DNA of 64,000 nt, taken from Macrostomum hystrix. Its lineage: Eukaryota > Animalia > Platyhelminthes. The DNA lies in assembly GCA_950097015.1 (NCBI GenBank), contig CATNEN010000038.1, positions 24,304,001-24,368,000 of the forward strand, read 5' to 3'. The first letter of the stretch is position 1. The number at the start of each line of letters is the position of its first letter. The position numbers and the translations under genes are program-made. Below, piece by piece: positions 587 to 45,007 of the stretch. The notes under the pieces were generated by a model that had not been told where the DNA came from, searched no databases, and saw only the letters and a program-made list of their open reading frames with translations.

Positions 587-3500
587 ATGACTTCCGGCTC
601 AGCTATCAATCATGCTCAACTAGCTGAGCTACCAGCGGCTCCTGTTTTGAACCCAACTCTAGACTACTTGGAAGATCTGGCCAGCTATCTATCTGAAGTG
701 GTTAGGCCACAGCTGAAAACCTCTAATGAACATTGTCTAATGTGTAAACTGGTGCTGCCAGATCAGCAGGCATTTGAAGACTGCTCAGATGCTGACTGCG
801 ACTCTGCTGAAGCCGACGACCAGAAGAAAGGATGGCGCCCACCGTCATTCTGTTTGGATCTTGATTTACTCAGATTTCCACCTTCTAGGCAGAGAATTGG
901 CGGCAAAGGTGGCGGCGTTTTTAACGTGCAAGGCCTGGGACCCGAGTGTCACTTGGCTGCGTTTGTTGCGCGCGCTGAAAATTCTCAAACTACTGCTGCC
1001 GGAGTTGCCGAAAGCAGCTCAGCTCAGCCTAGTATTGTGGAAGCCGAATTTTGGCGACTGTTTAACTCTAGTGAGTGACACTTTTCACATCCTGTCCATC
1101 ACCAGTAATCCACTAATCATTCCTCTTCAAATCCTGTCCAATCAGATCGATCGACTCTAAAACCCACCCCTCATTCGCTCCTCAGATCGTTTCTAATCAG
1201 ATCGATCGATTCTAAAAACCCACCTGTCATTCCCTCCTCAGATCCTGTCCAATAAGATTGATCGACTCTCTAACCCCACCAGTCATTCCCTCCGCAGAGC
1301 CTGTCCAATCAGATCGATCGACTCTCTAACCCCACCAGTCATTCCCTCCGCAGAGCCTGTCCAATCAGATTGAATCAGATTGATCGACCCTCTAACCCCA
1401 CCAGTCATTCCCTCCTCAGATCCTGTCCAATCAGATCGATCGACTCTCTAACCCCCACCAGTCATTCCCTCCTCAGATCCTGTCCAATCAGATCGATCGG
1501 CTCTCTAACCCCCACCAGTCATTCCCTCCTCAGATCCTGTCCAATCAGATCGATCGACTCTCTAACCCCCACCAGTCATTCCCTCCGCAGATCCTGTCCA
1601 ATCAGATCAATTGTCGTTTTGTTTTATTATTATTGATCCGTAAGTAAAATTCTATTTCGCCTTAACATTTCAAGCCTCGACGTCAGTCTTAGTTGAACAC
1701 GGCGATAAATTTCTGCCCGTTAGCGAAGATGACGGCTGGGAATTAGCGTCTAGTCTAGCCGATTGCGCCAACTTTGCCAACATTGCTGCTACATCGTTGG
1801 CGTCAACTACTAGTACTAGTTCATGGTGGCGCTGCCATATCGGCTCTAGATTAGTGTCCTCGTGTGGTCAAGGTCAAGGTCAAACGGACAACATCTTTCA
1901 ATCTGATTGGTCCGGAGTTGTGTCCTATCTGCACTGGGGCGAGCCGAGAATTTGGTATTGCTTATCAGGCGATAAGAATTCTAGCCAATCCGAGCTAAAC
2001 GGCTGGCGATCTATTCAGATGCCCGGCGAGTTTATTGTCCTCCTACCGGGAGCTCGTTACGCTTGGATTGACTGCGGCGTCAACTTTATGGAATCCGCTC
2101 GCTACTGTCCGCTTGCCTGGCTATCAGAGGCTCGTCTAGCTGGACTGCCGGCCGCTGTTGAGCGACAGGCTTTGCTAGAGGCCCTGGAAACAGCCATTGT
2201 GGAATCTGATTCTACCAATACTGGGCAGCAGCAGCAGCAACAGCTGCCTGCCAACTTAGCTGACATGCTTCTGGAAGAACTTAAGGTCAGTACTTTGACG
2301 CTTCTGACACTTATCCCAAAATCTTCTGACACTTTTCCTACATTTTACTGACACTAGGTCGCTATTATGGCAAATATAAAACTTGTACAATGTCCTCAAA
2401 TTGTTTAAAAAAATCGCAGCTATTTAAAACTGCCGAAGATGAATTGTCCACGGACACCAGTCAGCTGCTAACGTCGGGTCGAAGCTACCTGACCAATCTG
2501 CGCGACAGGTACACCAGCTGGCAAGTAGCTGTCAGCGCCATCGAACCAGCTGATGATTCAACTAATAGTAAGCCAACTCTTGCCCAACTGGAACAGCTCG
2601 CCTGGCAAGGCTTTGCCGAGCTCCGCCTGTCCCCAGTCGCCTGTCCGTCGCTGGCTCGCCTCCGCTGTCGAATTTGTTCGGCTAGGCGAGCCCGTCAAGT
2701 GGTTGCCGCACTCCTAGCCTTTCATCAGCTAGAAGATAAAGAGGATAGCAAGGACGCCAACTGCTCTAGGGATAAAGACAATCTTGGCGATGACGCCGAC
2801 AAAGAGGTCGAATCTATCGGCGTCAAGAAATCGCATCGCGCCGACGAGCACGAGGATGACATCGACGGTCAGGGCGAAGCTTCTAGACTGCGCCAACTTC
2901 GAAAGCGGCTGCGATTTCCCCGCTGCGGCGCTCGCGTCGGACGTTGCGTCAACAAAATCTCCGAGGCCAGTTTTGATGCCGTCTGTCGCCGACTCGATCG
3001 CCTGTCGTGTCGTCTAGCCGAAGATGAGGAAGACAATTTTGCTTCGCTAAGATTGCGTGTTGATAGCTGGCGCGAGAACTGCTCAGAATTAATGAGCACA
3101 GGTACGAATCTTGGGGTAGAAATCATTTCATAATTTTTGGTGGTACTTTGGGTTCGTGTACCAATGAAGGTCGAATGCTGCTCGACGAGAATGTCTATGG
3201 CCAGAACTAGCTGTTTCTGTCTTCTTCAACTGCCCATATTACTTTAGGCCATAGACACTTTCATCAATTCCTTGGTCTTTGGTTATATGTTTGATAAGTC
3301 GACAGAAAAACTGAATACCTGATAAGTAAGATAATAATTGATTACAAATTAGGTCCATGGACTGTGGGGGAGGGGCGCCACAACAATGATTTCCCCATTT
3401 AACAGCTGGGTGAACTGAAGCAACATAGAGTTAGGCGGCTTACTAACGACGCTTATTGTTTCATTGGAGTCGGGAATCGAACCTCTGACCTGCAGGCTTC

Positions 3501-6500
3501 TAGCAAGCTCAACGGAAAGCTTTTTGAACTGAGGAATTAAAAATGTTTTTTAATGAAAATTTTGAGATTCGAACCGACGACTTCGCTTTCATTTTTATCT
3601 TGATTATCGACTCTGGTTATTGGACTAAAACCTCTCCTGCGCAGGTGAGCAAGACGAATTTGAAGAGCCTGACGCTTCGATTGTAGCGTCCCTAGCAACT
3701 GAAGCGCGTCGCCTACCCGTTGCTATGGACGCTTGGCCATGGCTAGCGGCCGTCTATGAGAGACAATTGTTTTTAGCCGAAGCTCAAACAATACTACTAA
3801 GCGATTCAGCTGCCGGCAGAGATCAGTTAGCGACAAGGCTAAAATTGTTTCCAAGCGAATTGTCCCAGCTGTGCGCCAAAGGAGCTTCCTTGAGATCGCA
3901 GACACCCAGTTCTGAGGCCGCCGTGGCTCAACTGCTGGAGTTGCTAAAAGCTGGGCAGGAGTTGGAGACAAGGTAAACACTTTTAGCGACAGTTTTTTCT
4001 TATCTTAGATGCTATTTTCTTAATACTAACTCTACTCTAACTTCTACACTGCCATTTCCCTAATTCTACACTGCCATTTCCTAAAGTCTACACTGCCATT
4101 TCCTAAAGTCTACACTGCCATTTCCCTAATCTACACCGCCATTTAATAAAGTCTACACTGCCATTTCCCTAATTCTACTCTGCCATTTCCCTACTTCTAC
4201 ACTGCCATTTACCTAATTCTACACTGCCATTTCCTTACTTCTACACTGCCATTTTCCAAAGCTAGGCTGCCATTTTCCTAATGCTAGACTGCCATTTTCC
4301 AAAGCTAGGCTGCCATTTTCCAAAGCTAGGCTGCCATTTTCCTAATGCTAGACTGCCATTTTCCAAAGCTAGGCTGCCATTTTCCAATTGCTAGACTGCC
4401 ATTTCCCTAATTCTACACTGCCATTTTTCCAAAGCTAGGCTGCCATTTTTCCAAAGCTAGGCTGCCATTTTCCTAATGCTAGACTGCCATTTTCCAAAGC
4501 TAGACTGCCGTTTTCCAAAGCTAGGCTGCCATTTTCCTAATGCTAGACTGCCATTTTCCAAAGCTAGGCTGCCATTTTTCCAAAGCTAGGCTGCAATTTT
4601 TTCAAAGCTAGGCTGCCATTTTCCTAATGCTAGACTGCCATTTTCCAAAGCTAGTCTGCCATTTTCCAAAGCTAGGCTGCCATTTTCCAAAGCTAGGCTG
4701 TGATTTTCCAAAGCTAGACTGCCATTTTCCAATGCTAGACTGCCATTTTCCAATGCTAGGCTGCCATTTTCCAAAGCTAGGCTGCCATTTTCCAAAGCTA
4801 GGCTGCCATTTTCCAAATCCAGATTTCCGTTGAGTTTGAATCAAATTATATAATATTTCTACATTTTATACAGAGCTCGTCGCGTACTAGACACACGTCG
4901 GCGTTTACAACAAATGCAGCATCAGCAGTTGCAATTGGCCTCTTCAAATTCTCAACAGCAACAACAGCAGCATCAGCAGCAGCAGCAGCAGTTGCAGGCC
5001 TCACTATTAGATATCGAAGATATTCAAAGGCTAGTTGAAGATGGAACCAAATTGCCGTTGCGTTTAGCTTCAGTTGCAGTCACTGCGGAGCTGTTAGCCA
5101 AGATTCGCGACTGGTCGGAGACTGTGGCCTCGGAAACTGGCAACGGTATTGGCTTGCTGGCCTATCCAACATTGAGCACCCTGGAGCGTCTGTTGGATGA
5201 AGGCAGAAAATTTTGCGTCAAATTAGACCAATTGGGCGAGTTAGAGAGTCACGTTGCTCAAGCCAAAGGCTGGCTAGATCGAACCGCTAGAAACTTTCTA
5301 AAGAAGCATTCGCCACTGACGCTAATTCAGGTTGGATTTGTGAAACAGTTTTGTTAGCTTTGTAAATTCGTTACTTTTCCAAATTCGTTAATTTTCTAAA
5401 TTCGTTACTTTTCCTAATTCGTTACTTTTCTTAATTCGTTACTTTTCTTAATTCGTTACTTTTCTTAATTCGTTACTTTTCTTAATTCGTTACTTTTCTT
5501 AATTCGTTACTTTTCTAATTTCGTTACTTTTCTAAATTCGTTACTTTTCTAAATTCCGCGCTTTAAGGGCTTGCCGTGCAATTCGCGCCCTTGAGGGCCA
5601 ACCTCCAAGGCACAGTGAGAGTGTACTAACGATGTGCCGTTGCAACTAATATTATTCATTACTTCTCGAAAAGTAACTATTAAAAAGTAACGATTTTAAG
5701 TCTGTTTCTATTAGTAATGAAATTTACTTTTTTTAATTAACGTTTTCTGAGTTTTCAAGTAAAGTCTATTGTCACTGACTATAATTATCCTCCTATAATG
5801 TAAGGGTTCTTTACGTAAAAAAAGTAACAATTAAATCTCGACCAATTTATTTTTCAAGGTACTTTTGCCGCGTTCGCCAAAATCGTTTCTACGCGACTAC
5901 ACCAAATCTCCGAATAGTAACGCTTCAACTGTAGGCGCCACTGCCGCTAATTGTGCCCCTAGTCAAACTTTGGCATCGAATAAGAAAGGCTCGAGAAAGT
6001 CCGCTCAGTCGGCAGCCTCGTCAGCTAATCAGGCCTCGTCTACTAAGGTTGAAGCCAATCAGAGTGCGGCTGATCAGCAGCAGCAGGCTCTGGAACCTGT
6101 CGATCAGTTCTCGGCCGATATAACAGATGCGGAGCGAGTTTCACTCTATCAGGAATTGGCAGTCAGCGAACTGCAAGCTGCTATGGCTGCCAGGTGATGA
6201 TACATTTGTACATTTTTTTCTTTGAGGGCGGATAGCTCAGTCAGTAAGGTGTCGGACTCTGGATCAGATGGTCCTGGGTTCGACTCCCGACCTAGTCTAG
6301 AACTATTCGTGCAGCCTTTGGCAAGCTGCTTTGCCCTGATGTGCACAGTCTACTCAGCTGCAAATGAGTACCGACATTTCATCGGGTAGTAATAATTCCG
6401 GCTTGCGTGGAGTGGAATAAAGCAGTTCTGTGCGGCAATTCTGTGGGGTTTGGATGCTGCCGATATGTTTGGGAAAAACAAATTCCATGGCTGACACGCG

Positions 6501-8379
6501 GCTGTCAACCGGTGTCCGAGAGAGCCGGGAGTACAATAGGTGTGCAGTCCCCACCTGCTAGTGTGCTAGACACAACACCTGCACTGGCCCTTGGGTCTAG
6601 TGTCTTTAGGTGAAAATACCTAATTTTTTCTTTAGGTATTTCCTACTCAAAACTCGCCACGAACTCGAATCCGCGTCGACTCCACATAAATTTTGGTATT
6701 TTCATAAAATTTCTCCCCTTTAGGGTCTAACCCGCCAGGGCACAGATAGGTTTGACACTGCCTGACGATGAGAAAGAATTCTCACTTATAAAGATTCGAA
6801 TCTGACACAATAAAAACAATTTTTTATCCACTCTATTGACCTAAAGTTCTTCAAAGTTAAGCCAATTGCGAAGTTTCGGCAGCTATTCCGGTACCCCGTG
6901 AAGCCTTAATTATCCAAATATTTGTACTATCACTGAGCCTTGGAGATTGTCACTCGAGGACACAAACGCTCCGCCAGTCACCCTCCCCATTTGAGTCTTT
7001 GTCTTTGTACATCTGTTCAAACACCCACACCTCTACAGGCACCGCACAGGTCACGAACTGACCCTGGCGTCCACTTGCATCTGTGGTCAACGCAGCGGCG
7101 GCGGTGGTTTCATGCTGCAATGCGAACTTTGCCGTCACTGGTACCACGCTCAGTGTGTCACTCTGCCGAAGTACCTGAAGCCGAAGACACTCGCCGGAGG
7201 CGCAGCCTCAGTCTCTGCGATGCGGGCGGCACTTCGCGATTTAAAATATCTCTGCCAGGCCTGCGAGCGCGGTCGTAGACCGCGTGTTGAAACTATTCTA
7301 AGCCTGCTGTTGTCGTTGCAACGCCTGCCCTGTCCGCTACTGGCTGGCGTAGCCCTTCAATGCCTGACTGAGCGGGCAATGTCCTGGCAGGATCGGACTC
7401 ACTGTCTACTGTTGAGCAGTCCCGAACTTCGCCGAGCTCTCGTCTGTTTGGCGCGCACAATGAAATTGCAACTGCCCGATAAACTGCTGCGCCAGCTAAA
7501 CACCATGATTACAACTAGCGCTAGTGGCGCCGTCAATGCTCCTGCCGAAGCTTTAATGCCTGCTTCTAGTAGCTTGACAACTTCTGCTTCTGCTGTCGTC
7601 AACGCTGGCGCTTCTTCTTTAATCCAAGCCGGCGGTGGCGGCTCATCGGCCAGGAAGCCGCGCAAGTCACCGCTATTTCCTCGGGGGCCGGGAGCTGCCG
7701 CTGCCGCAGCCGCCGCAGCCGCAGCCGCCGCAGCAGCCGCAGCCGCTGCATCATCCGGATCGGCAGTATCCATGGGTTTGGGGAGCCTTGGCTTAGTCAG
7801 CCGAGAATCTCTAGCCATGCCTGGCTCGTCTCCTCCGTCTAATTCCATATCCGACGGTCCGTTCGGCGGCGCATCTCCGACATCGTCACTGATGCCTGCC
7901 AGGCGGCCTAGGATTGTTCTAAGCTCAGCAGCTCGATCTCAACTCGAATCGGCCATGCTAGAAGGCGACTTACTGGAGGTGTCGATGGAGGAATCGACCT
8001 GGTTGTGGCATCTGTTGCAGGCGAGCGCCCCAGATTTCGTTGCCGACTTTGATCAGGAAGAAGCTGCCATTGTTGTTAATAGACAGTTGGATTCTAGCGA
8101 TGAGGATGACGAAGCAGATGATGATGATGGTGAAGAAGAGCTTGCTGATGATTCAGACAATGAAGAAGACATGAAAAACATTGACGAAGCTGATGCTGAT
8201 GACAGCGACATTGATGCCGCCGAAGATGCTTACGGTGACGGAGATGTCTCCGATGCTTATTCAACTTCCGCCATCGCTTTGGCTCCTGTTATGCTGCCCT
8301 CGGCTGCTGCCGCTGCTGCCGCTGCTGCTTTGTCGGCTTCAAAACGACAGCCGAAGTCCTCAATGAAGCAGCAACAGCA

Positions 8380-8440
<61 letters not shown>

Positions 8441-11400
8441 AAGTATCAAAAGCAGCGTTGGCAGTCCAAAGCGAAGATTGCTCTGCAGCGCGGTCGGCAG
8501 CCAGTCAACAGACGCTCGTCCGATAGTGGCTCAGGGGCGGGTGGCAAACGGCCCGCCAGCTCCAGCGTGTCCTCCGCCGCCGCGGCATCGTCTGGCATCG
8601 TTGATAAACGACGGCGTCATGTGCGAACGCCAATGGAAGCGGTTGGTGCATTGTTTGATTGGTTTTTAATAATTGTGCAGCCGACAGCACAGCCGCAGCT
8701 GTTGCGTAGCGCATCTGAAGGCTGCGTGCGGCTGTTCAGTCCATGGACTGGGGGGACGCCACACCCACCTTCAATTACCCCAGATAATGCTTGTACTTTG
8801 TTAGCCCGGTTGCCAAAAAAAGTTGAATGGGCCACATTTTTTGGCCCACTAGTGGGCCAAAGTTTGGTTCTGAGCGGCCCACAGAAAGCCCACATTGACC
8901 CAGAAAGTGTTTAATGGCAGACACCGGGTCACACGGCGGCTCATACGGAGGCCCGTACAGGCCCGTACACGGCGGCCCACACAGGCCCATAAACGGCGGC
9001 CCTTACAGGCCCATACACGGCGGCCCATACAGGCCCGTACACGGCGGCCCATACAGGCCCATACACGGCGGCCCATTTTGGCTTGTATACACTGGCCCTT
9101 GATGGCCCATATTGGCCCACAAATACTGCCACATATACCGGCCCACATTGGCCCACACATACTGGCCCATTTTGGCCCACATATACTGCCACATATACTG
9201 GCCCATATTGGCCCACATATACTGGCCCATATTGGCCCACATATGCTGCCACATATACTGGCCCATATTGGCCCACATATACTGGCCCATATTGGCCCAC
9301 ATATGCTGGCCCATATTGGCCCACATATACTGGCCCATATTGGCCCACATACGCTGGTTCATATTGGCCCACATATGCTGGCCCATATTGGCTCACATAT
9401 ACTGGCCCATATTGGCCCACATATACTGGCCCATATTGGCCCACATATACTGACCCATATACTGGCCCATATTGGCCCACATATACTGGCCCATATTGGC
9501 CCACATATGCTGCCACATATACTGGCCCATATTGGCCCACATATACTGGCCCATATTGGCCCACATATGCTGCCACATATACTGGCCCATATTGGCCCAC
9601 ATATACTGCCACATATACTGGCCCATATTGGCCCACATATACTGCCACATATACTGGCCCATATTGGCCCACATATGCTGCCACATATACTGGCCCATAT
9701 TGGCTCACATATACTGGCCCATATTGGCCCACATATACTGGCCCATATTGGCCCACATATACTGGCCCATATTGGCCCACATATACTGGCCCATATTGGC
9801 CCACATATACTGCCACATATACTGGCCCATATTGGCCCACATATACTGACCCATATTGGCCCATATTGGCCCACATACGCTGGTTCATATTGGCCCACAT
9901 ATACTGGCCCATATTGGCCCACATATACTGGCCCATATTGGCTCACATATACTGGCCCATATTGGCCCACATATACTGACCCATATTGGCCCATATTGGC
10001 CCACATATCCCAGCCTATATTGGCCTACATATACTGGCCCATATTGGCCCACATACGCTGGCCCATATTGGCTGGTCCATATATTATAGCGCATAGGGCC
10101 AAAGTAATTACTAATTACTATAAAAAACAAGTACCTATTTCTCTTTAATACGGCTTGGCTCTTAAATATTTACTTGCCATGTAACTAATTGTGAATGGAT
10201 TGTGAATGAGCAATGCTTGTATTGCGCAAAACTTGCACAGCAACATGTGTAGGATACAAGTAGGAAACAAATTAATAGAAAGATTGTAACGCATGGATTG
10301 ATTGGTTGACTGAAAGGTTCAGTCATGTAGGACACATTTGGTTTTCATAACCACATACTCTCCGCTGCATCTATAGTCTAGGTTTTCTTCTTCGCTTCAG
10401 CAGCTGACAGATCCCGCAATGGCCGCTTACGACGAGGCAACGACTTCATAGCTTCGATAGGCGCTTCAGGGGGTGTAGGGGGCATCTCGATTGCCCAAAA
10501 CTGGGCATCGCCAGTTCGAATCTTCGGCTGGTTGCTGCGATGCCTGCCGGCCACCTGTAGCCTCTTTCTTCGACTCTCAGGCGACAGATCGGCAAACCAG
10601 GCCTCGCAGTCCGGACAACAGTGCGCCTGGAGCTCCAGTCTGTCCTCTTTGCGTCGGCAGACATGCACACAGGCCGGCCCGGAGCTTCTCTCTGGAAGCC
10701 GATTGTAATCCGCTCGAATTTCAGCCGCCGTCTTTCCTTCGAATATGCCGCCTAAGGCGTGCCGACGAACCCCGTCTCTGGGGCCTGCGGCCTCAGACCC
10801 ATCATCGCCGCACTCGCCGGGGCCCTGGGTCTCAGACCCATCATCGCCGCATCATCATCATATATATTCTCGGGATCGGGATCGGGATTGGGATATATAT
10901 ATATACTCGGGATCGAGTACCTTCAACCCTTAATCGATACTTTATCACTTTGAAACCTTCAAGACGAACAAATCAGTTACAAAATCACTGCGGGGAACAA
11001 TCGCTTAAGGATCGATATCGGCGGCATCGTTTTCGCCGGCTCCGGCGGCAACAGTGGCAGTAGCTGCGGCGCCAGCGTTGTCGCCGACAACGGAGGCACC
11101 AGCTGCCGCGGCAGTCGGGACATCGGCGGCGGTAACGGTCTGCAGTCCCCTCTGCGTACGGGCCGTGCGCCTGAAAACGCTGCCCAGTAGAGTATCCGGC
11201 AAGCGTTTGGTCTGTGTGAGAACGAAGAAAGTGAAGTAATGAAAAACTAATATTCTAACAGTTTATATACAATGTATTCCGATGCTGTAGACATGACGCT
11301 GCACTAAATCGCCCAAAATAGTAGTACAACTAGTGTAGAACAGCAATGCACATAATATTATGTACTAAAGAAAAGAAAAAGAAAAAGAAACAGTTAGTGT

Positions 11401-14400
11401 ACAGCTTACGTCCAATTTTTTCTCTAGTAGATAAGCTCGGATGGCCCGCTTTTTCGTCTCGTCCAATCCCGGCCTGTTTGGCTTGTTTGATTTTTTGCTC
11501 TGGCGCCCTTCCCAGGAAGAGCCACTGAAGTCGGCAACAGTCAGGACGCCTCGGAAAAGTGTGCGGAGCATCGTGCCGCGCAGCTTTTGGCTGGTATCCG
11601 CCGCCTTGTATGCGCTGACGGCGGCCTCAATTTTGTTTAGCTTAGTGGTGGAAACCGTCACAGTAGGGATGCTGCTTACTAAGGGCACAAGGACATCGGC
11701 ATCCGCGATGGCATGAGCGGCTGTCCGCTGAGCAGCTGACGATCGCGATAGTCCCATTGAATCTATTGCCGCTGAGATGCCCAGCTGGCACACAAATGAA
11801 GATCTGCCGGCATCGTCGGTGCTGGAGTCGATGCTAGACGGCAAAACTGTAGCGTCGTGGGTATCTGACGGAAGTACATCAGAACCAACACAGTTGCTAT
11901 CTGCAGACACAGCAGGCCCTCCGGTTGAATGCGCCATTATACTGTTGGGTAGTGCTTCCCATGTGGCGTTTAACTGCCTCAATAGTTCGTGGCCATATTG
12001 CAACGCCTGCTTGCCTGAGTCGACCATAAGTCGGGCAACTCTGTCGGCCTGCAGTGTACTGCGGCCCAGGGTGCGTATAGCGTTCGTCAAACGCTCGTTG
12101 AAATCAACGGCAGTCTGTAGGCGAGTGTCGTAGTCAGCCAGTAAGTCGTGATTCTGGGTTATTACGGCGTCTCTATCTTTGAGATCTTGAATCAGAGTCT
12201 CGTTCAGATTTTTGAGAGCCTCAAGCTCATCATTTAGGCGCCTGTTTGTTTCAATTTCTGCGTCTGTTCGCTTCTGGGCATCCTGAACGCCGCTGCGGAG
12301 CTTGTGACACTCAACTTCCAGATTTCTGCAGCGTACGCAGTCACCGTCTGGCACATTAATTGTCGTCGTGCTAAGGACGCTTCGATTACTCGAATTAGGG
12401 CGGCCTGTTGACGACGAAGCGGCGGTGGAAGCCTGGTGCACGATGCGGCCCATGGCAGACGTTGCATCCTTTCGTATTCGAAAGGGGCCTGCGGTAATAA
12501 AAGCGCGATGCTTTTTGGCGCCAATGCTGCGTCCCGTGACGACATCAACCGCCGCGCCGATAGCTCGTTGGGCAGGTACGGCCGGCGAGACAATGTTTTT
12601 TGCGCTCACAACCTGAGAATGTAGATCAGTGGCATTCAAGTGGGATCGTGGAATCCGATCATGATATCGACATGTCGGTATACTGCACACGTACATCTGC
12701 ATCTGCATGTAGGGATGCTAAAATTTCAGATTCGCTCACCTGCAGAGAATTTGAAGAGCAGTAAGTGACTACCCAGAAGCTGTCACTCTGGATAGCAGGC
12801 GCAGCGATGGCAACTGGACTAGCGGAAGCATCAGCAGGCGGAATCTTCCGCTGCTGTAGCGGAAACCGTTTAGCTTTTCGGTTCTGTTGACCATCCTCGT
12901 CAGTTACGTCTGCAGCAGCTGATGCGCTCGGCGGCAGTGGGTCTTCCGTGCACCGGACCCGCTTGGATTCAGCGCTGCACTCATCAATTGCAGCTGCAGA
13001 CCTCTTCAGCTGGTCTGTGTGGTCTGCGTGGCCGAAGTTGCTGTTGGCGTCCAAGTCGACATTCTTGCGTACAGCGGGTTTCCTTGGCTTGGCCGTCTGA
13101 GCCGCTTTTTCGGAGGCCTTCTGCTGCTTAGCCGTGGCCTTGGCTTATATTTCATTGTGATATTAAACAAAGTTACATCATTTGCGCTGTGCAACTTGGA
13201 CTTTAAAGTCATAAAAAACGTATTCGAATGCTAGTGAAAAAACAATCCATTTATCTAGCCATTGACAAGCATACGCATTGGCTATTTAAATCCTTTTGCA
13301 TGAGCCAATATGGGCCAGTATATGTGGGCCAATATGGGCCAGCATATGTGAGCCAATATGGGCCAGTATATGTGGGCCAATATGGGCCAGCATATGTGAG
13401 CCAATATGGGCCAGTATATGTGGGCCAATATGGGCCAGCATATGTGAGCCAATATGGGCCAGCATATGTGAGCCAATATGGGCCAGTATATGTGGGCCAA
13501 TATGGGCCAGCATATGTGAGCCAATATGGGCCAGTATATGTGGGCCAATATGGGCCAGCATATGTGAGCCAATATGGGCCAGTATATGTGGGCCAATATG
13601 GGCCAGCGTATGTGGGCCAATATGGGCCAGTATATGTGGGCCAATATGGGCCAGTATATGTGGGCCAATATGGGCCAGCGTATGTGGGCCAATATGGGCC
13701 AGTATATGTGGGCCAATATGGGCCAGTATATGTGGGCCAATATGGGCCAGCGTATGTGGGCCAATATGGGCCAGTATATGTGGGCCAATATGGGCCAGCG
13801 CATGTGGGCCAATATGGGCCAGTATATGTGGGCCAATATGGGCCAGCATATGTGAGCCAATATGGGCCAGTATATGTGGGCCAATATGGGCCAGTATATG
13901 TGGCAGTATATGTGGGCCAATATGGGCCAGTATATGTGGGCCAATATGGGCCAGTATATGTGGGCCAATATGGGCCAGTATATGTGGGCCAATATGGGCC
14001 AGTATATGTGGCAGTATATGTGGGCCAATATGGGCCAGTATATGTGGCAGTATATGTGGGCCAATATGGGCCAGTATATGTGGCAGTATATGTGGGCCAA
14101 TATGGGCCAGTATATGTGGGCCAATATGGGCCAGTATATGTGGCAGTATATGTGGGCCAATATGGGCCAGTATATGTGGGCCAATATGGGCCAGTATATG
14201 TGGGCCAATATGGGCCAGTATATGTGGCAGTATATGTGGGCCAATATGGGCCAGTATATGTGGCAGTATATGTGGGCCAATATGGGCCAGTATATGTGGG
14301 CCAATATGGGCCAGTATATGTGGCAGTATATGTGGGCCAATATGGGCCAGTATATGGGCCAGTATATGTGGGCCAATATGGGCCAGTATATGTGGCAGTA

Positions 14401-15018
14401 TATGTGGGCCAATATGGGCCAGTATATGTGGCAGTATATGTGGGCCAATATGGGCCAGTATATGTGAGCCAATCTGGGTCAGCATATGTGGGCCAATATG
14501 GGCCAGCGCATGTGGGCCAATATGGGCCAGCATTCTTGGGTCACAATAGTGGGCCGAAAGTGGGCTGAATTGGACATTCGGCTCGTTATATGGGCCAATT
14601 ATTAATGGGCTCTTAATGGGCCTATGTGGGCCACTTGTTGGCCCATCTATATGTGGGCCGAAACTGGGCAAAAAGCCCGCAAATTGGGCTAAAAGGCACT
14701 GGCCCACTGTTGGCCCACTGAAAAGCCCATACTTGCATGAAAAAAGCCCTTTGGTTTGGCAACCGGGTAGGAATCATTTTTATTCTGTCACATTTCACAT
14801 TGCAGACTTTTGGATTAACGTCCTTTTACCAGCTATTTCCCAATATTCTCAAGTTCAGAAGGGTTGTCTCTTTATTTTCCCAAGCCATATTCCTAGCATT
14901 TATCCATCATTCTTATGCTTGTTTCTAGGCAGCTGAACGACGCCGCAAGCACTATACTCAGCAGTCCTGGCAATCCACAGTTCAGACAAACACATCTACC
15001 GCTCCGATTGCTAAGCAA

Positions 15019-15092
<74 letters not shown>

Positions 15093-15926
15093 ACGACGGC
15101 GAGGCTGGAACGACGATTGCGCCGCTCCAAATTGTCGTCAACCCGCTGGCAATCAGGTTTGGTTTATGACCACTTGTTAGCATTGGGTTTTATCCCATTG
15201 TTTATAATCCCTTTAGAGATTGTTTTTGGATTTTTATCGTATTCCAAATCCTTGTCCTTTAGGAGTTTTATCCTATTGTTTCCACTCGGGGTCTTTTGGG
15301 ATTTTTATCTCACTGTTCCCACTCCGAGTCTTTTGGGTTTTTTCCCACTGTTCCCACTCCGTACTTTTATCGCAGTATTCTCACTCCGAGTAAGTTAGGA
15401 TTTTTTATCTGATCTACCCCGATCCTAGGGTCTTTCTGTAGTTTTTCCCATTTTTAAGCATGAATAGTTTGCATTTCTCCAGGTCAATTGGGTCGAATGT
15501 GACCAATGCCAGCAGTGGTTTCATTGGATCTGTGTTGGCGTCTTATCCGATGACGAACTGGCTGACTCCTACCTGTGCCCCACCTGTCTGCAATCTGGAA
15601 ATGCCAGCGCCGATCAACCACCTGATGAAGCCGACGATGTTAAATACGACACTAAAGAATTTTCGCCGCATCGTCCGGCTGAATTTCCAGTCAAAGCGAC
15701 GGACGCTGACGTGATCGACGAAGATGACGACGACGAGGATGACGACAGCGATATCGAGGAGTTGCTGCCAACACCGGACGGTGAGGAAGAAGACGACGAA
15801 GAAGATGACGACCCGGAGGATTCGATGGCGCAGAAGGACGCGCCAGAGGATGATGACGTCATTGACGAGGACAACGATGACGAGGAAGCAAACACATCGG
15901 GGGATGTGGCATTGGCCGACGCTTGA
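587..15926 (+). CDS. KDM5: KDM5/Lid-like (JARID1) protein, divergent: JmjN, degenerate JmjC, PLU-1-like region, PHD2, PHD3; about 9 exons (approx. 587-1070, 1675-2285, 2420-3101, 3645-3972, 4874-5330, 5859-6193, 7039-8641, 14929-15156, 15483-15926)
   Basis: JmjN-like [10 protein letters not shown]...[21 protein letters not shown]; VEAEFWRL; [12 protein letters not shown]; [11 protein letters not shown]; PHD2 CICG...[15 protein letters not shown]...YLCQAC followed by [19 protein letters not shown]...[14 protein letters not shown] and LEGDLLEVS; PHD3 CAAPNCRQP|[19 protein letters not shown]...YLCPTC. GT-AG junctions keep frame where checked. Confidence 0.88.
1085..1610. repeat. Intronic minisatellite, about 59-60 bp unit
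   Basis: Repeated AGATCCTGTCCAATCAGATCGATCGACTCTCTAACCCCCACCAGTCATTCCCTCCTC. Confidence 0.9.
3350..3505 (-). mobile_element. tRNA-derived SINE family A, partial copy
   Basis: Reverse complement resembles 28840-29040 (B-box GGTTCGATTCCCGACT; GCTTCAGTTCACCCAGCTGTTAAATGGG; AGTCCATGGAC). Confidence 0.7.
4040..4815. repeat. Intronic minisatellite, about 21 bp unit (CTGCCATTTTCCAAAGCTAGG and CTACACTGCCATTTCCCTAAT variants)
   Basis: Direct tandem repetition; explains spurious ORFs 4586-4844. Confidence 0.92.
5365..5556. repeat. Intronic minisatellite (AATTCGTTACTTTTCTT-type unit)
   Basis: About 10 tandem copies. Confidence 0.9.
6224..6620 (+). mobile_element. tRNA-derived SINE-like element
   Basis: Head GGCGGATAGCTCAGTCAGTAAGG...GGGTTCGACTCCCGACC (A/B boxes) followed by CAGTCTACTCAGCTGCAAATGAGTACC, related to the core of the 28840 copy. 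Confidence 0.7.
8672..8797 (-). mobile_element. SINE family A fragment adjacent to the TIR element
   Basis: Reverse complement closely resembles 28981-29100 (GCATTATCTGGGGTAATT...CCCCCAGTCCATGGACTGAACAGCCG...GCTGTGCTGTCGGCTGC). Confidence 0.8.
8930..10080 (+). repeat. Left subterminal arrays: short 24-bp ACACGGCGGCCCATACAGGCCCAT-type array, then 24-bp GCCCATATTGGCCCACATATACTG array with 12-bp CCACATATACTG inserts
   Basis: Tandem units read directly; they generate the [16 protein letters not shown] pseudo-ORFs. Confidence 0.95.
10378..10851 (-). CDS. CtIP/Sae2 (RBBP8/COM1) C-terminal domain-like module carried by the transposon; open frame lacks an in-frame ATG upstream of the domain (5'-truncated or a spliced exon)
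   Basis: [81 protein letters not shown] aligns by eye with CtIP [63 protein letters not shown] (CxxC, RHR, FW). The frame is open to 10851. Confidence 0.8.
   Translation of the reverse strand, partial: CGDDGSETQGPGECGDDGSEAAGPRDGVRRHALGGIFEGKTAAEIRADYNRLPERSSGPACVHVCRRKEDRLELQAHCCPDCEAWFADLSPESRRKRLQVAGRHRSNQPKIRTGDAQFWAIEMPPTPPEAPIEAMKSLPRRKRPLRDLSAAEAKKKT
11005..13140 (-). CDS. Spliced transposon-borne gene: N-terminal beta-rich segment, coiled coil and C-terminal BEN-like domain (exons about 13140-12740, 12612-11410, 11211-11005; start unresolved)
   Basis: Canonical phase-0 introns 12739-12613 (CAG|GTGAGC...CATTCTCAG|) and 11409-11212 (GAC|GTAAGC...CACACAG|) join three ORF-track fragments. 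CxxC plus heptad segment [14 protein letters not shown]...; BEN-like [54 protein letters not shown]|[21 protein letters not shown]. Confidence 0.72.
13296..14535 (-). repeat. Right subterminal array: same 24-bp unit in inverted orientation (CAGTATATGTGGGCCAATATGGGC)
   Basis: Reverse complement of the left-array unit. Confidence 0.95.
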
Positions 15927-26318: not shown

Positions 26319-26747
26319 ATAGAGTAAAATAATGAGAAAAAAACCATTTTTTACAAAAGAGACGAATTAGTTAAGGGGGTATACGATTGGAGTTTTAAGT
26401 CTTTGTCCGAATATAATTTTGCGTTTTTTTCACATTGAGTATTTCCTTAAGGGCAGTACCAGTTTGTCTTCTGTTTCGCATATTTGTCTTCTTGCTTTTA
26501 TCAGTAAAATATTGTGTGGCTGTGTGTGCTCTTTTGTCTTCGACAATCATTCATTAGATCCAAACTCTAGTGATAGAAATATGAAACAGTATTAAAAAAC
26601 ACAAAGCAGGCGTCACAGTCCAGATGTTAGTCGTACACAGGTCTCAGTGCTGATAAGGAACGCCCGAACGATTGTATATTATACATGTGTGGCACTTCGG
26701 TAAAACAGTAAATCTTCGTATCAAAGACTCCATAACGAAAGCAAGCT

Positions 26748-27539
26748 ATGCCTCCGAGCTTCACTCTTTCCTGTGCAGTCTTTGCCGCTCTCGCCGTAAG
26801 CTCTATCCTCGCTTCCTCGATCGTCTGCACCAAGGAGTATCGTCCAGTTTGCGGAGTGGACGGCAGCACTTATCCGAACGCTTGCTTCGCGGAGGCGGCT
26901 GGAGTTGAGATTCGTCACAATGGGCCTTGCATCTCATTGTGCTTAAATATCTATCGTCCAGTGTGTGGAGTTGATGGCAAAACTTATCCTAATGATTGCT
27001 TCGCTAAGACAGCCGGGGTTGAACTTCAACACCTAGGCGAGTGCCCTGCTGAGCTGTGCCTCAATATTTACCAGCCTGTGTGCGGTGTTGACGCCAAGAC
27101 CTACTCAAATGAGTGCTTCGCCAGGGCTGCCGGAGTTGCAGTCAAGCACGTTGGCGAGTGTCCATCCAATAAGAACATTTGTATCAATATCTACCAGCCT
27201 GTGTGCGGTGTTGACGCCAAGACCTACTCAAATGAGTGCTTCGCCAGGGCTTCCGGAGTTGCAGTCAAGCACGTTGGCGAGTGTCCATCCAATAAGAACA
27301 TTTGTATCAATATCTACCAGCCTGTGTGCGGTGTTGACGCCAAGACCTACTCAAATGAGTGCTTCGCCAGGGCTGCCGGAGTTGCAGTCAAGCACGTTGG
27401 CGAGTGTCCATCCAATAAGAACATTTGTATCAATATCTACCAGCCTGTGTGCGGTGTTGACGCCAAGACCTACTCAAATGAGTGCTTCGCCAGGGCTGCC
27501 GGAGTTGCAGTCAAGCACGTTGGCGAGTGTCCGAAGTAG
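26748..27539 (+). CDS. Secreted multi-domain Kazal-type serine protease inhibitor (6 domains, intronless)
   Basis: Hydrophobic signal peptide; six C-x7-CGVD-x2-TY-x-N-x-C...G-x-C units; the last domains are near-identical 123-bp repeats; AATAAA at about 27606. Confidence 0.92.
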   Translation: MPPSFTLSCAVFAALAVSSILASSIVCTKEYRPVCGVDGSTYPNACFAEAAGVEIRHNGPCISLCLNIYRPVCGVDGKTYPNDCFAKTAGVELQHLGECPAELCLNIYQPVCGVDAKTYSNECFARAAGVAVKHVGECPSNKNICINIYQPVCGVDAKTYSNECFARASGVAVKHVGECPSNKNICINIYQPVCGVDAKTYSNECFARAAGVAVKHVGECPSNKNICINIYQPVCGVDAKTYSNECFARAAGVAVKHVGECPK

Positions 27540-31627: not shown

Positions 31628-31835
31628 ATGCTGCCGTGACCTTCTCATTGTTAGACCTTCTCATCTTACGGCCCTTTAGGCGTAAATTGCACGATAGGCC
31701 CCACAAGGTTCCCAAAAAATCGGGATTTGACGCGGATTCGAGTTTAGTGACGTTTTCTGCAAAATATGTTGCTTATTTGAATTAGTTTTTTTTCATTTCC
31801 AGCAGTAAAATTGAACAAAGCCAAACCCGCCTAAC

Positions 31836-32768
31836 ATGGAGCTGTCGGTGCAGACGAGGACCTACCTAGTCCTGGGCATCATGGTGTGCTGCTTTGCCGT
31901 ATTATATCCGAAAATCTTCCACCCAATGATCATGGCCTGCCTAGGCATGCGCCAGTCATCCTCATCGTCGGCATCTTCGTCAGGCGACTGGCCAGACAGC
32001 GCGGCTCATCCGAGACTGCGCCGACCGATGCCCGGTGGCGCCAGTTCTGGCGGACCTGGAGGCCCTGGAGGCCGCATGGCGGCTGAGCACGCGGCCTCGA
32101 TGCAGGCCCGCCAGCAGAGCGGCGGCTTTGGCGGCAAAGGCAACGTAGTAGGTCTAATTCTACCGGTGTACGCTATCGGCATTGTGCTTTACCTGGTGTA
32201 CACCTTAGTTAAAGTAATGGGCGGCTTCAAGTCCAATAATGCTAACGGCAACAATGGTCGCAACGGGAATAGCTCCGTTAATGATTATTATAAAAATTTT
32301 CATTTCGATCCGTTGAGCGGCGAATTTGTTGATAATAACGGCGGCAACGAAGGCCCGGGTGATCGTCGACGCAACGGCAACCATTTCAGTGGCGGCAGCG
32401 GCGATGTCGGTAGCGCCGTTGACCCCGCCGGCTCAGACCAGAATCGATACGAAAGAATGCACAGAGATTTGGAGAAGCTGCTGCGTCGAGTGGACGATCA
32501 GGACATCTCGGAGAATGAGCTGGTGCAGCTGCGCAGCAGACTAGAAGAGACTGAGCGACAGATGACTACCATCCTGAGCGCTATGCAGAATCTGCAACAC
32601 AAGCAGGCTTCAAGTGCTGCCGCCACCGCCTCTGACGCTGTTGCATCAACTTCCGCTTCGCCGGAAGCGGTTAAAGAAAATGACGCAGCATCTAATTCGC
32701 CTGCTAAAGAGGCGGATGAGTGCGAGACTCGACATAGAAAGGCCTACCCGTTGGCCTCGGACGAGTAG
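31836..32768 (+). CDS. RIC3: Resistance to inhibitors of cholinesterase protein 3 (nAChR chaperone), single coding exon
   Basis: IMVCCFAVLYPKIFHPM; second TM LILPVYAIGIVLYLVYTLVK; coiled coil ELVQLRSRLEETERQMTTIL. Confidence 0.92.
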   Translation: MELSVQTRTYLVLGIMVCCFAVLYPKIFHPMIMACLGMRQSSSSSASSSGDWPDSAAHPRLRRPMPGGASSGGPGGPGGRMAAEHAASMQARQQSGGFGGKGNVVGLILPVYAIGIVLYLVYTLVKVMGGFKSNNANGNNGRNGNSSVNDYYKNFHFDPLSGEFVDNNGGNEGPGDRRRNGNHFSGGSGDVGSAVDPAGSDQNRYERMHRDLEKLLRRVDDQDISENELVQLRSRLEETERQMTTILSAMQNLQHKQASSAAATASDAVASTSASPEAVKENDAASNSPAKEADECETRHRKAYPLASDE

Positions 32769-38690: not shown

Positions 38691-38944
38691 AAAGCGACTG
38701 CGAGTCATGTACACCAGAGTATGAGAGAGGCTTCGAAAGGGTAATGATAAGACGACCGATCTCGTTTGCCTAACTATTTTCAGTAGGCTCAAGATATCAT
38801 TTGTTAAAGGGGAGCCAAATAAACAAAATATACTAGAAACACTTAAAACGAGCCCACCATTTTATTTATCCATTTACTTATTTACGTAAAATTTATAAAT
38901 TTTAACACATTCTTTTTTCAGGTTTAAATATTCAACTAATTATA

Positions 38945-40291
38945 ATGCGTCGGCATAAACAAACATCGCCAGCTGATCTGTCAGATCGGAATGATGGAAT
39001 ATTTCATAATACCAACAACGTTAGCAATAATAATAATAGTTTAGCAGCCAATCGGAATCTTCTAGCCGACGATTACACCGGCCTGTTTAATGCTGCCTGT
39101 GGTCACGTGGTTTGCGGCCTACTGTTCATCTTGTGCATGAGTCAGTGCGGCATATTCGATGTTGTGCAAACCGATACAGATCTAAGTAGATACGCCGAAC
39201 GGCACAGCGTCAACTGGCTGTCCTCTTGGCTGCCGATGCCATTTAACACCTTTGTTAATGTCGGCTATAGCTTGTGCGGTCTATACTGGCTGGCAAGGGT
39301 CAAGCGACTGTTTCTTGCTGGTGAGTTTCTAAAGGCTTTTCATGATAACAATTATGTTTTCTTAGGTCTGGACTCTAGAAGTAGCTTCTATTCTATAGGC
39401 ATCGCATCTGATAGTTGGATGAACTCAAGCAATGGAGTCAAAAGATGGGAGTCAAGTTTCTTGCGAAATTACGCATTTTTCAGTAGAGTCAGGAATCAAT
39501 CGAACCACGAATTTTAAGTCACGAGTACAACTCTCTTGACTGGATCTCTCGATTTAGACATATACAAGCGTGTTTAAGGGTTAGGAAGTTAAAATTTATC
39601 TATACAAAAGTATAATCTAGCTTCGTAGTTCATTCACAAGAAGGTCGAAAGACCTGACCAAAAATACATACAGAGAATATGTTTCAAATGGCATACTGAT
39701 CTCCTCACCATAGGTCGACTGAGCCGCGACACGGCCTATCTATTTAGCGTATTCGCCGCAATGTCAACCGCCTACGGCCCCGTTCAGTTGGCTCGGATTA
39801 TGCGAATGTCACACAGTCTGGCAGTTGTTGACCAATGGGTCACTCTACCATTCTTTGCCTGGGTCCCAATCTGGGTCGGCGCCACCGCTATTGGTCGACT
39901 ATCGGCTGGTCCTGCTCTGTTAGTTATGGTGGCCTCTTTGCTTAGCTACTTACTGGCAGTAGTAACCGACGTCGGATTCGAATTAGCTCTAACTTTGCAC
40001 GTCGCCGGAGCTCTTGGAGCTGGAATATTTCTCTGCCTTTATCCGGGCTTGTCGAATTCGCCCGGCCTAATTAGAAATGTCGCCCTAGCCGGCATTAGCT
40101 GCGTCGGTTTTGTGGGCTTGAAACTGTTGGACCACGAATTGGCGGCTTTGTCACCGATGTTCCGCATTGTCTCTGGTCATTTTGCGTCAAAGGTGGCCGA
40201 CATATTACAGATCCACTATGTTTGCAGGGCTTTTGAGTGCGTTGCGTTAGGCGACGTACAATGCGGCGCCGGCGGTAGAAAAATGGCTTGA
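38945..40291 (+). CDS. TMEM187: TMEM187-like multi-pass membrane protein; exons 38945-39320 and 39714-40291
   Basis: YAE...WLPMPFNTFVNVGYSLCGLYWL; AYGPVQLARI...VVDQWVTLPFFAW; GFVGLKLLDHELA...SGHFASKVADILQIHY. Confidence 0.85.
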
Positions 40292-42367: not shown

Positions 42368-45007
42368 TCAGTTAATGAACTGCTTACTGTTCTTTCTACT
42401 TGTCCAGTTGCCAACCATTAGGGGCACAAAATTCATGGTAGAAGTCTTAGACCAATTTTTAACTTCATCGTGGAATTTATTGCCGCGACAACTACCGAAG
42501 GCCGAGGTCGAGTGGGCCGCAGTGTTTGACGTAGTCACTGGGGCAACTGCCGGAGGTCTCTTAGTCCTACTTGTCTGATGCCTTACATTGGCACTGTTGG
42601 GTGTAACCACTTGAGTAACTCCTGCGCTGACACGCCAGTCCAACACACCATCCAGTGGTCGAATTTTTCGCAGAAAATTTGTCAACTCGCCGCTGCTGCC
42701 GTATCTATAACAGCTCGGCTCGAAATCTCGGTAAAAAAACTCATTCGGATTATCTTTCGGGCAGTGCGTAGGCCGTCTCGATGATCGCGACTGCTGCGGC
42801 ATCGGTCGCTGTTGCTCTAGGACCCGTCCATCGTAGCGTACCTGTTGCTGGTCGTCATACTGCTGTTGCTGCTGTTTTTGCCTTCGGTGTGGAATCAACC
42901 CGCGCAGTCGTTTGTTGCTCTCATTGCACCTCAGTGCGTTGTTTTCGTTTGCCGCAGATTCACTTTCTTTTTTCTCGAACTCGCTAGGAATTTCTTGCGA
43001 CTCCTCGGCTCCGCTCTCGACGCCATTGCCACCTTCGACATCAGCTCCGCCCACGACTCCGCTTTCCGCTTCGCTATCTTCAACAACCTCGCCTCTGTAT
43101 TCTTCCCTGCTTTCATCTGCGCTCTCCGCTTCGCGATCTCGATCGTCAATGACTTCTTCTTCCACTTCTGAGATTTTCCTGCTGCTTTGCCGATTCGCAT
43201 CAGTGCTCTCTTGACTGCTTTGACTCTGGACTTCGCTGCCAGCTTGACTGTTTCGATGCTGGAGTCCACTGCTGGGTCGGCTGCTTAGTCGCTGGTAATC
43301 GCTGCCCACTCGACTACTTTTTCTCTGGATCTCGACGCTGGCATAACCTCCATCACTGCTTGCCTCGCTGCCTTCACTCTCGATTGGACTTATTTGCCGC
43401 TGGACTTCGCCGCTAGGTCGACTGCTTTGCCGCTGGACTCTGCTGCTGGGTCGACTGCTACGCCGCTGGACTTTGCCGCTAGGTCGACTGCTACGCCGCT
43501 GGACTTCGCCGCTTGGTCGACTGCTACGCCGCTGGACGTCGCCGCTTGGTCGACGGCTACGCCGCTGGACTTCGCCGCTTGGTCGACTGCTACGCCGCTG
43601 GACTTCGCCGCTTGGTCGACTGCTACGCCGCTGGACTTCGCCGCTTGGTCGACTGCTACGCCGCTGGACGTCGCCGCTTGGTCGACTGCTACGCCGCTGG
43701 ACTTCGCCGCTTGGTCGACTGCTACGCCGCCGGACTTCCTCGCTGTGTCGACTGTTTTGACGCTGAGCGTCACTGCTCCCCACTCGACTTCTATGCCGTT
43801 TTTCTCTACTTAAGGCTCGACTGCTTTGCCTCTTAGCCTCTCTGCCGCTATTCCGCTGGACTGCATAGCTTAAATTAGAGCTCCGTTGACTATCCTCACT
43901 ACTGGAATTGCTGCCATGGTAACTGCCTTCGATCTCGGATATACTGCTTTGACGATAAATGTCTTTGCCGTATATACCACTATACCACTTGACCTTGATG
44001 CGGTCATCAAGACTTCCTCCACTGTCGCTTTCGCTGTCCCGATCACTACCGTCACTCAATGCTGAACTGCTCCGTCGATGGGCCTCGCTGCGCACTAGAC
44101 TGCTTTGACGCTGTACTTTGTTGCTGGGACGACTGCTTTGCCACTGTACTTTGTTAATGCGACGACTGCTTTGCCGACGGGCTTCAGTTTCATATCGAGC
44201 AATTGGGCGCTGGGTTTCAGTGCCATTTCGTACACTTTGCCTATGGGTTTCAGTGCCATTTCGTACACTTTGCCTATGGGTTTCAGTGCCATTTCGTACA
44301 CTTTGCCTATGGGTTTCAGTGCCATTTCGTACACTTTGCCTATGGGTTTCAGTGCCATTTCGTACACTTTGCCTATGGGTTTCAGTGCCATTTCGTACAC
44401 TTTGCCTATGGGTTTCATTTTCGAGTCGTCTGCTTTGCCGATAGGCTTCTTGTCCGCTTAGTCGCTGAGTGCTCCGTCTATCACCTTCACTGACGCCATG
44501 ACTGACTCTCCGTTTACTATCCCTAACGGATTGAATGCCCATGCTATCGATGTCACTGACTTCTTCAATGTCCAGGTAATCACCTTCACTGCCAAATTGT
44601 GCGGTCCGGCTATAGTCTTCACTATGTGCTTGTGTGTTGCGGTGATAGCCATCACTTCTGGCTAGACTGCTGACGCCTTCCTTGTCTTGTTTGCTGCTGA
44701 CTTGACTGCCTGCCTGCCGGCCTTCTTCAATACTAGTTATACTTTCCTGGCGCTTGCTTTGAAGGCCTCGTTGAACGCCCACAGGCTTGCCTTTAGTGTC
44801 GTAGTGACTGACGCCATCAGGGTCTATAACTTCACCATGATTCCAGCCGACTGGCTCATCAAGCACACGGTTGCAGATCGTGTTCCACAGGTCTTGCTGG
44901 AAGCGCCGCTTGCATTGGTTAATGTCCGGTTCCATGGCTCTTAAATTGACGCCCAGATCCACTGGGAACATGTCGCGAATTCGGCATCGACACGCCGCCC
45001 AGTGCAT
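42368..45007 (-). CDS. Intronless 879-aa Ser/Arg-rich low-complexity protein of unknown function with 11-aa repeats
   Basis: Long ATG-initiated open frame with non-repetitive N- and C-termini; 33-bp repeats ETHRQSVRNGT and VQRRSSRPSGE. Confidence 0.7.
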   Translation of the reverse strand: MHWAACRCRIRDMFPVDLGVNLRAMEPDINQCKRRFQQDLWNTICNRVLDEPVGWNHGEVIDPDGVSHYDTKGKPVGVQRGLQSKRQESITSIEEGRQAGSQVSSKQDKEGVSSLARSDGYHRNTQAHSEDYSRTAQFGSEGDYLDIEEVSDIDSMGIQSVRDSKRRVSHGVSEGDRRSTQRLSGQEAYRQSRRLENETHRQSVRNGTETHRQSVRNGTETHRQSVRNGTETHRQSVRNGTETHRQSVRNGTETHRQSVRNGTETQRPIARYETEARRQSSRRINKVQWQSSRPSNKVQRQSSLVRSEAHRRSSSALSDGSDRDSESDSGGSLDDRIKVKWYSGIYGKDIYRQSSISEIEGSYHGSNSSSEDSQRSSNLSYAVQRNSGREAKRQSSRALSREKRHRSRVGSSDAQRQNSRHSEEVRRRSSRPSGEVQRRSSRPSGDVQRRSSRPSGEVQRRSSRPSGEVQRRSSRPSGEVQRRSRRPSGDVQRRSSRPSGEVQRRSSRPSGKVQRRSSRPSSRVQRQSSRPSGEVQRQISPIESEGSEASSDGGYASVEIQRKSSRVGSDYQRLSSRPSSGLQHRNSQAGSEVQSQSSQESTDANRQSSRKISEVEEEVIDDRDREAESADESREEYRGEVVEDSEAESGVVGGADVEGGNGVESGAEESQEIPSEFEKKESESAANENNALRCNESNKRLRGLIPHRRQKQQQQQYDDQQQVRYDGRVLEQQRPMPQQSRSSRRPTHCPKDNPNEFFYRDFEPSCYRYGSSGELTNFLRKIRPLDGVLDWRVSAGVTQVVTPNSANVRHQTSRTKRPPAVAPVTTSNTAAHSTSAFGSCRGNKFHDEVKNWSKTSTMNFVPLMVGNWTSRKNSKQFIN

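Follow-up and report, generated by a model that had tools for sequence, protein, structure and literature searches.

What is the role of a spliced gene, encoding a protein with a predicted coiled coil and a probable BEN domain, that lies inside a CACTA-like transposon of the flatworm Macrostomum hystrix? The element occupies 5,963 bp (8805-14767) of a 64,000-nucleotide stretch of contig CATNEN010000038.1 (assembly GCA_950097015.1, positions 24,304,001 to 24,368,000 of the forward strand); this whole stretch is referred to below as the window. The initial annotation, made from the sequence alone, had joined three open reading frames (ORFs) through two phase-0 introns into this gene, and had compared its product with TnpA, the second protein of plant CACTA elements. 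With both splice joints present in RNA contigs and a homologous protein in Macrostomum lignano, the presence of such a gene inside the element was borne out. We observed the following structure:

12740..13143, minus strand: exon A, starting at the AG acceptor 13145-13144, with no in-frame ATG
12613..12739, minus strand: intron 1, 127 nucleotides, GT-AG, phase 0; exact skip in runs X7, X8 and X9
11410..12612, minus strand: exon B, 401 codons, stop-free
11212..11409, minus strand: intron 2, 198 nucleotides, GT-AG, phase 0; exact skip in runs X6, X7 and X9
11005..11211, minus strand: coding part of exon C, with the predicted final BEN helices, an Ala-rich tail and the stop codon 11007-11005

The stop-free frames 13143-12740, 12612-11410 and 11211-11005 together specify a spliced product of 603 residues without its own start. 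The frames and GT-AG sites were as initially annotated; the gene edge had been set at 13140 and had to be moved, as the exon begins at the acceptor, position 13143. One search found nine public runs matching the stretch; eight (X1-X3 and X5-X9) were aligned, all as assembled contigs, which can lose rare splice forms. Each of the joints (12739/12613 and 11409/11212) was present exactly in contigs of three of the eight runs, with 11410 joined to 11211 at intron 2, and the spliced contigs of X6 and X7 extended beyond the BEN stop as far as 10817. Contigs of X1, X2, X3 and X5 were unspliced across intron 1, where those of X6 gave no cover; at intron 2, X1 was unspliced, X2, X3 and X8 ran into the intron, and X5 gave no cover. 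The span 13203-13290 was covered by none of the runs, and missing cover there carries no weight as evidence. When scored against the M. lignano homolog (P0003, see below), the donor/acceptor pair of intron 2 ranked first among 231 GT-AG pairs, and that of intron 1 was joint first among 348 joins. The contigs of X6-X9, a single study with no library record, had no differences from the window sequence; these runs were taken as RNA because GT-AG introns were skipped exactly. Transcription and splicing of the gene are thus confirmed. As to the other runs, X1-X4 are wastewater metatranscriptomes in which the element interior was seen at ∼99% identity, unspliced in X1-X3; the unspliced contigs may represent pre-mRNA, DNA carry-over or another population.

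Three regions of the spliced product could be delineated:

12481..12778, minus strand: small conserved block, family unassigned, interrupted by intron 1 (from the alignment with P0003)
11965..12339, minus strand: CxxC and, after it, a predicted coiled coil (∼120 residues, from the heptad count); the CxxC and the start of the coil are common to P0003
11137..11682, minus strand: BEN-like domain, residues about 445-560, interrupted by intron 2

An HMMER search among 1.84 billion representatives yielded two matches. One of them, P0002 (E 4e-8), a protease of bacterial type and repetitive sequence that shares no domain with the query, was dropped as a repeat artefact. The other one, P0003 (PAA66355.1), is an M. 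lignano protein named ‘BEN domain-containing’, similar in length (616 versus 603+ residues) and provided with its own start. It aligns across both splice joints in three blocks arranged in the same order: the block at the first joint, the CxxC with the start of the coil, and the BEN region. Identity is ∼30% in the blocks overall and 32% over 108 residues of the BEN region, spanning intron 2; in comparison with 300 shuffles the block scores corresponded to z values of 6.1, 7.4 and 22.8 (windows picked after the alignment was seen), while the N-terminal part could not be aligned with P0003 (z -1.5, 300 shuffles). A word-index search found no match to exon B among 7,997 candidates, and the P0003 query retrieved itself only. 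The three blocks shared with P0003 show long-term constraint on the lineage of the BEN gene.

The protein very probably carries a BEN domain; the single tests, made on sequences and on predicted models, were weak but in agreement. The profile check gave a divided answer: BEN (PF10523) was the best Pfam family for exon B (E 0.001, the exon-B part alone being scanned), but its 19.7 bits fell under the cut-off of 23.2. Among the Atlas neighbours of the P0003 domain there were BEN clusters at 0.93, the ten best neighbours with a family agreed in all ten cases, and BEN was annotated on 20-33% of members in the neighbour clusters. Comparison of a model of the P0003 domain with 48,161 chains placed NACC1, BANP, Bsg25A, BEND6 and BEND3 at ranks 1, 2, 3, 5 and 9; for the best BEN match Z was 6.5, with a root-mean-square deviation of 3.3 and 94 residues aligned (model pLDDT 57). 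Foldseek with the same model had Insv-BEN at rank 2, not significant, and both matches of a two-row profile to PDB sequences were to the NACC1 BEN domain (E 0.18 and 0.24). The fold predicted for the P0003 domain, with its basic C-terminal helix, is like that of NACC1, BANP, BEND6, Bsg25A/Elba1 and Insensitive (PDB 8yzs, 7yuk, 7yul, 4x0g, 4ix7), which are host factors with identity of 11-25%. As to the coil, its heptad register places 18 large hydrophobic residues at a/d positions versus 3-7 in four other registers; from this pattern we predict a coiled coil and oligomerization through it.

Binding sites for such a protein could be expected at the ends of the element, which have the following layout:

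8642..14928, plus strand: predicted intron of a KDM5/Lid-like host gene, with an in-frame join predicted; the element sits antisense inside
8802..8804, plus strand: left TAG direct repeat, likely target-site duplication (one copy of the element, no empty site seen, chance ∼1 in 64)
8805..8817, plus strand: left 13-bp terminal inverted repeat (TIR), starting with CCC
8818..9102, plus strand: outer subterminal region that has diverged from its counterpart at the right end and retains GGCCC(A/G) pairs 10 bp apart
9103..10072, plus strand: left array of 24-bp units, each with two GGCCCA at spacing 10/14 and a 14-bp near-palindrome
13304..14530, minus strand: right 24-bp array, inverted relative to the left one
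14755..14767, minus strand: right 13-bp TIR
14768..14770, plus strand: right TAG direct repeat

The 13-bp TIRs are perfect, end in CCC and have TAG on both flanks. Read inward, GGCCCA is present 71 times at the left end and 88 times at the right end (159 in total), and in opposite orientation two and three times; the remaining 58 kb of the window have nine occurrences, on both strands. The outer ∼300 bp of both ends have diverged, with the 10-bp spacing of GGCCC(A/G) pairs retained, and since the diverged outer repeats keep the pairs 10 bp apart, GGCCCA is favoured as the conserved unit. The near-palindrome in the array unit has the core CCAATATG, one base off the ELBA BEN site CCAATAAG (7/8 bases alike; PMC3510454). 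We mention this core as a second candidate binding site, as a lead only. No transposase was found in this element copy among the ORFs and Pfam matches of the window. Harbinger, considered for the 3-bp duplication and a BEN/Myb likeness, has GGG ends; it was set aside because the ends here are CCC. The KDM5/Lid-like gene itself extends over 1644-15926 (plus strand) and contains JmjC, two PHD fingers and long poly-Q/poly-A tracts.

Exon A has no ATG in frame; the first one is found inside exon B:

12451..12453, minus strand: first in-frame ATG, residue 188 of 603, preceded by six out-of-frame ATGs

Starting at Met188, translation would yield a 416-residue product retaining the CxxC, the coil and the BEN region. 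No ATG-bearing micro-exon that could be spliced in frame to 13143 from a strong donor was found in the element interior. In RNA contigs the acceptor 13145-13144 was joined to two different upstream exons, X6 having one of them and X7 and X8 the other; the contigs of X1-X3 diverged from the window at 13133 into a third upstream sequence with in-frame ATGs (read by eye). None of these three upstream sequences could be located within the window; therefore, the observed transcripts originate in exons outside the window or in further copies of near-identical sequence. The element likely exists in at least two structural forms, and the upstream exons may belong to the parent element or have been trapped from the host. 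The initial annotation had read recent selection from the intact frame. This argument does not hold: the copy has no start, frames in a young copy stay open even when selection is absent, and although three of the four coding differences in X1-X3 alter a residue, they are too few to decide.

The analogy to TnpA appears reasonable, because the spliced and transcribed gene sits in a CACTA-like element with ends packed with GGCCCA units. We infer that the element arose by internal deletion from an animal CACTA/TRC transposon, with the transposase presumably supplied in trans. By analogy, and with moderate confidence, we regard the gene as the TnpA-like helper of the element family, whose product would oligomerize through its coil, bind phased GGCCCA at both ends and aid the transposase. 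In the full element, predicted BEN domains of the oligomerized protein would coat the ∼160 GGCCCA sites and would assist in joining the ends or in recruiting the transposase. In the derivative, the acceptor at 13143 would be fed by outside exons (of other copies, of a longer parent element, or trapped from the host) or, alternatively, translation would start at Met188; a CtIP-like piece located downstream would ride untranslated in the 3′ untranslated region (UTR).

A number of observations count against this explanation. All the splice evidence comes from one study (X6-X9), and the three runs recorded as RNA, X1-X3, gave unspliced contigs only. The Pfam BEN score is below the curated cut-off in exon B and in P0003 as well (15.2 bits); structure scores for BEN stay below Z 8, with models at pLDDT 57-59. 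Foldseek gave no match at E 0.001 for the P0003-domain model or for the exon-B model, and with the latter, built from the window without the last helices, BEN structures appeared at ranks 11 and 31 (Z 4.3 and 3.9). In JGI metagenomes no loci were found by protein (168 stretches rejected) or by repeat pattern, and in viral contigs there were none either (270 rejected). The TAG duplication has 3 bp versus 2 bp in described TRC elements, with no 2-bp match present. Finally, this copy of the BEN gene has no start and the element carries a host CtIP-like fragment; for these two reasons capture of a host BEN gene is possible.

How does the element compare with known systems? Animal TRC/CACTA elements are described as having CCC ends, tandem repeats, truncated transcribed copies, spliced non-transposase products and 2-bp duplications (PMC1636069, PMC4298943); in the wider CMCT clade, duplications range from 2 to 5 bp (PMC12730594). 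Short CCC TIRs and internal tandem repeats are shared with SmTRC1 of Schistosoma mansoni and the TRCs of Aedes and Tribolium (PMC1636069), as well as with Spongebob of Hydra (PMC4298943). Transcribed truncated copies, spliced transcripts for a non-transposase protein and a flatworm host are further points of likeness to TRC elements in the same two papers. The present element differs in its 3-bp duplication, which is within the CMCT range, in having no Transposase_21 gene in this copy and in its CtIP-like cargo. It also differs in its second protein: a coiled-coil and BEN protein is not reported for TRC elements in the available parts of PMC1636069 and PMC4298943.

On the plant side, TnpA of maize En/Spm and Tnp1 of Tam1 are likewise products of a spliced second gene in elements whose CACTA-type ends have many oriented subterminal repeats (PMC2613891). 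In maize, transposition depends on TnpA, which binds the subterminal repeats and also has a regulatory function in the element; TnpA-like proteins of different elements lack homology to one another (PMC2613891). The flatworm protein differs in its predicted BEN fold, and homology to TnpA is not shown; binding and the need in transposition, shown for TnpA, are here assumed by analogy. BEN domains are known to bind short DNA motifs (PMC11514455, PMC11601247).

It could also be that the protein is the element's own and recognizes the arrays, with a function in transcriptional regulation or insulation, silencing or shielding the element instead of joining its ends. Those BEN proteins that have been characterized work at promoters and boundaries (PMC3510454, PMC11514455). 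TnpA, too, regulates both positively and negatively, and its binding to defective elements stops polymerase (PMC2613891); the present copy is situated in the predicted intron of a KDM5-like gene. On the other hand, the motif reaches both TIRs in inverted orientation, which is how cis-elements of transposition are laid out. One role does not preclude the other, and we consider a purely regulatory one rather unlikely.

Could the BEN gene instead be a passenger, a 5′-truncated host transcription factor of BEN type captured as DNA in a Pack-TIR and having no role at the arrays? The element does hold a host-like CtIP fragment, and the gene has introns with its 5′ end absent here. Animal Pack-TIRs are often transcribed and chimeric with host exons (PMC8277862), which fits the two different upstream exons. 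In the same source, animal Pack-TIRs are like the present case in being TIR elements with a host gene fragment (here the CtIP C-terminus), transcribed and apparently joined to outside exons; the difference is that the main cargo here is likely the element's own gene. For the BEN and the CtIP frames alike the best protein match is from M. lignano, with identity of 30-58%. Several facts argue against a passenger. Identity for the BEN gene amounts to ∼30% in blocks, far lower than the 51-58% of the CtIP piece, as expected for a mobile-element gene and not for a host ortholog. The P0003 cluster has three near-identical members on different contigs (a weak point, as genome duplication could explain it). 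The upstream sequence of X1-X3 from 13133, with the in-frame ATGs read by eye, suggests a longer form of the element with its own start. Taken with these facts, a passenger origin seems doubtful, and we retain the TnpA-like helper as the preferred explanation.

The CtIP-like piece mentioned above lies downstream of the BEN gene on the same strand:

10378..10851, minus strand: CtIP/SAE2-like C-terminal frame, 157 open codons, with CxxC and RHR kept and no ATG ahead of the domain
10144..10149, minus strand: ATTAAA, candidate poly(A) signal

CxxC and RHR are C-terminal motifs of CtIP/Sae2 proteins. The frame matched Pfam SAE2 with E 0.002 (19.6 bits versus a cut-off of 19.8) and the CtIP-like M. 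lignano protein P0006 with 58% identity over 70% of its length, the sole match among 1,000 longer candidates; in the alignment, homology reaches the last residues of the host protein. A 39-bp two-copy repeat (10790-10850, minus strand) at the start of the frame resembles a DDEGSET stretch of the host protein; an extra unit in the X1-X3 contigs shows that copies vary there. Contigs of seven runs from both studies end at 10151-10233, near the ATTAAA, a weak hint given that contigs cannot show an RNA end. The piece was likely captured from the host and stays untranslated within the 3′ UTR; its open frame is compatible with recent capture and with selection alike.

According to the initial annotation, the BEN protein could supply oligomerization that the CtIP module lacks, possibly in transcripts fusing the two. 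This was not upheld. No N-terminal oligomerizing coil was found in the same polypeptide as the CtIP module (there is no ATG before the domain, there are stops upstream, and the contigs of the eight runs showed no fusion joint); P0007, the CtIP-like homolog of the host, has a coiled-coil-like N-terminus of its own (read by eye). A broader proposal, that animal CACTA/TRC transposons use a coiled-coil and BEN protein as TnpA equivalent, and would then be a likely source of BEN factors in hosts, and that this flatworm family added the CtIP C-terminus of the host to its transcription unit, translated from a rare splice form and steering repair of excision breaks, is in our opinion very unlikely. 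Fusion of the coil, or of coil and BEN, to the CtIP-like C-terminus into an oligomeric CtIP mimic acting at excision breaks is a highly improbable explanation: the two frames do share strand and phase across a gap of 153 nucleotides, spliced contigs extend from the BEN exons to 10817, inside a CtIP frame whose 157 codons are uninterrupted and whose end coincides with that of the host protein, and four phase-0 AGs occur inside the start of this frame, but the stop at 11005 is followed by seven in-frame stops before the frame, the pyrimidine tracts of these AGs are weak (6-8 of 15), no joint from the BEN gene into the frame was seen in any of the eight runs (rare forms being subject to loss in contigs), and the X9 contig reads through 10206-10903, stop cluster included, unspliced.

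Elsewhere in the window, we saw very dense minisatellites (57 TRF rows), several of them of 1-3 kb with strong strand skew. An 879-codon frame with 33-bp repeats (42368-45007, minus strand) had no Pfam matches at E 0.001; at 26736-27539 (plus strand) tandem Kazal-domain repeats are formed by a nearly perfect 123-bp repeat. Matches to RIC3, TMEM187 (two frames), reverse transcriptase and Tiam CC-Ex were situated at 31815-32768, 38906-40291, 56543-57985 and 61937-62656, respectively.

In a search of the literature on BEN domains together with transposons, CACTA, EnSpm and transposases, the arrangement described here was not found; key BEN papers and Repbase, outside this search, may already link them. 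Nothing was found on capture of CtIP by TIR DNA transposons, and the available parts of PMC12730594, PMC6431247 and PMC6004678 do not mention a BEN domain. No paper covered assigns an identity to the end-binding second protein of animal CACTA elements. The candidate offered here has a gene structure confirmed by RNA, and its presumed target is simple and highly enriched, a 24-bp unit with a GGCCCA pair spaced at 10 bp. The derivative that carries it has the anatomy of a gene trap (an acceptor, two introns and a candidate poly(A) signal) along with a fragment of a DNA-repair gene. If the explanation is true, BEN would be the animal counterpart of TnpA, linking BEN chromatin factors to transposons.

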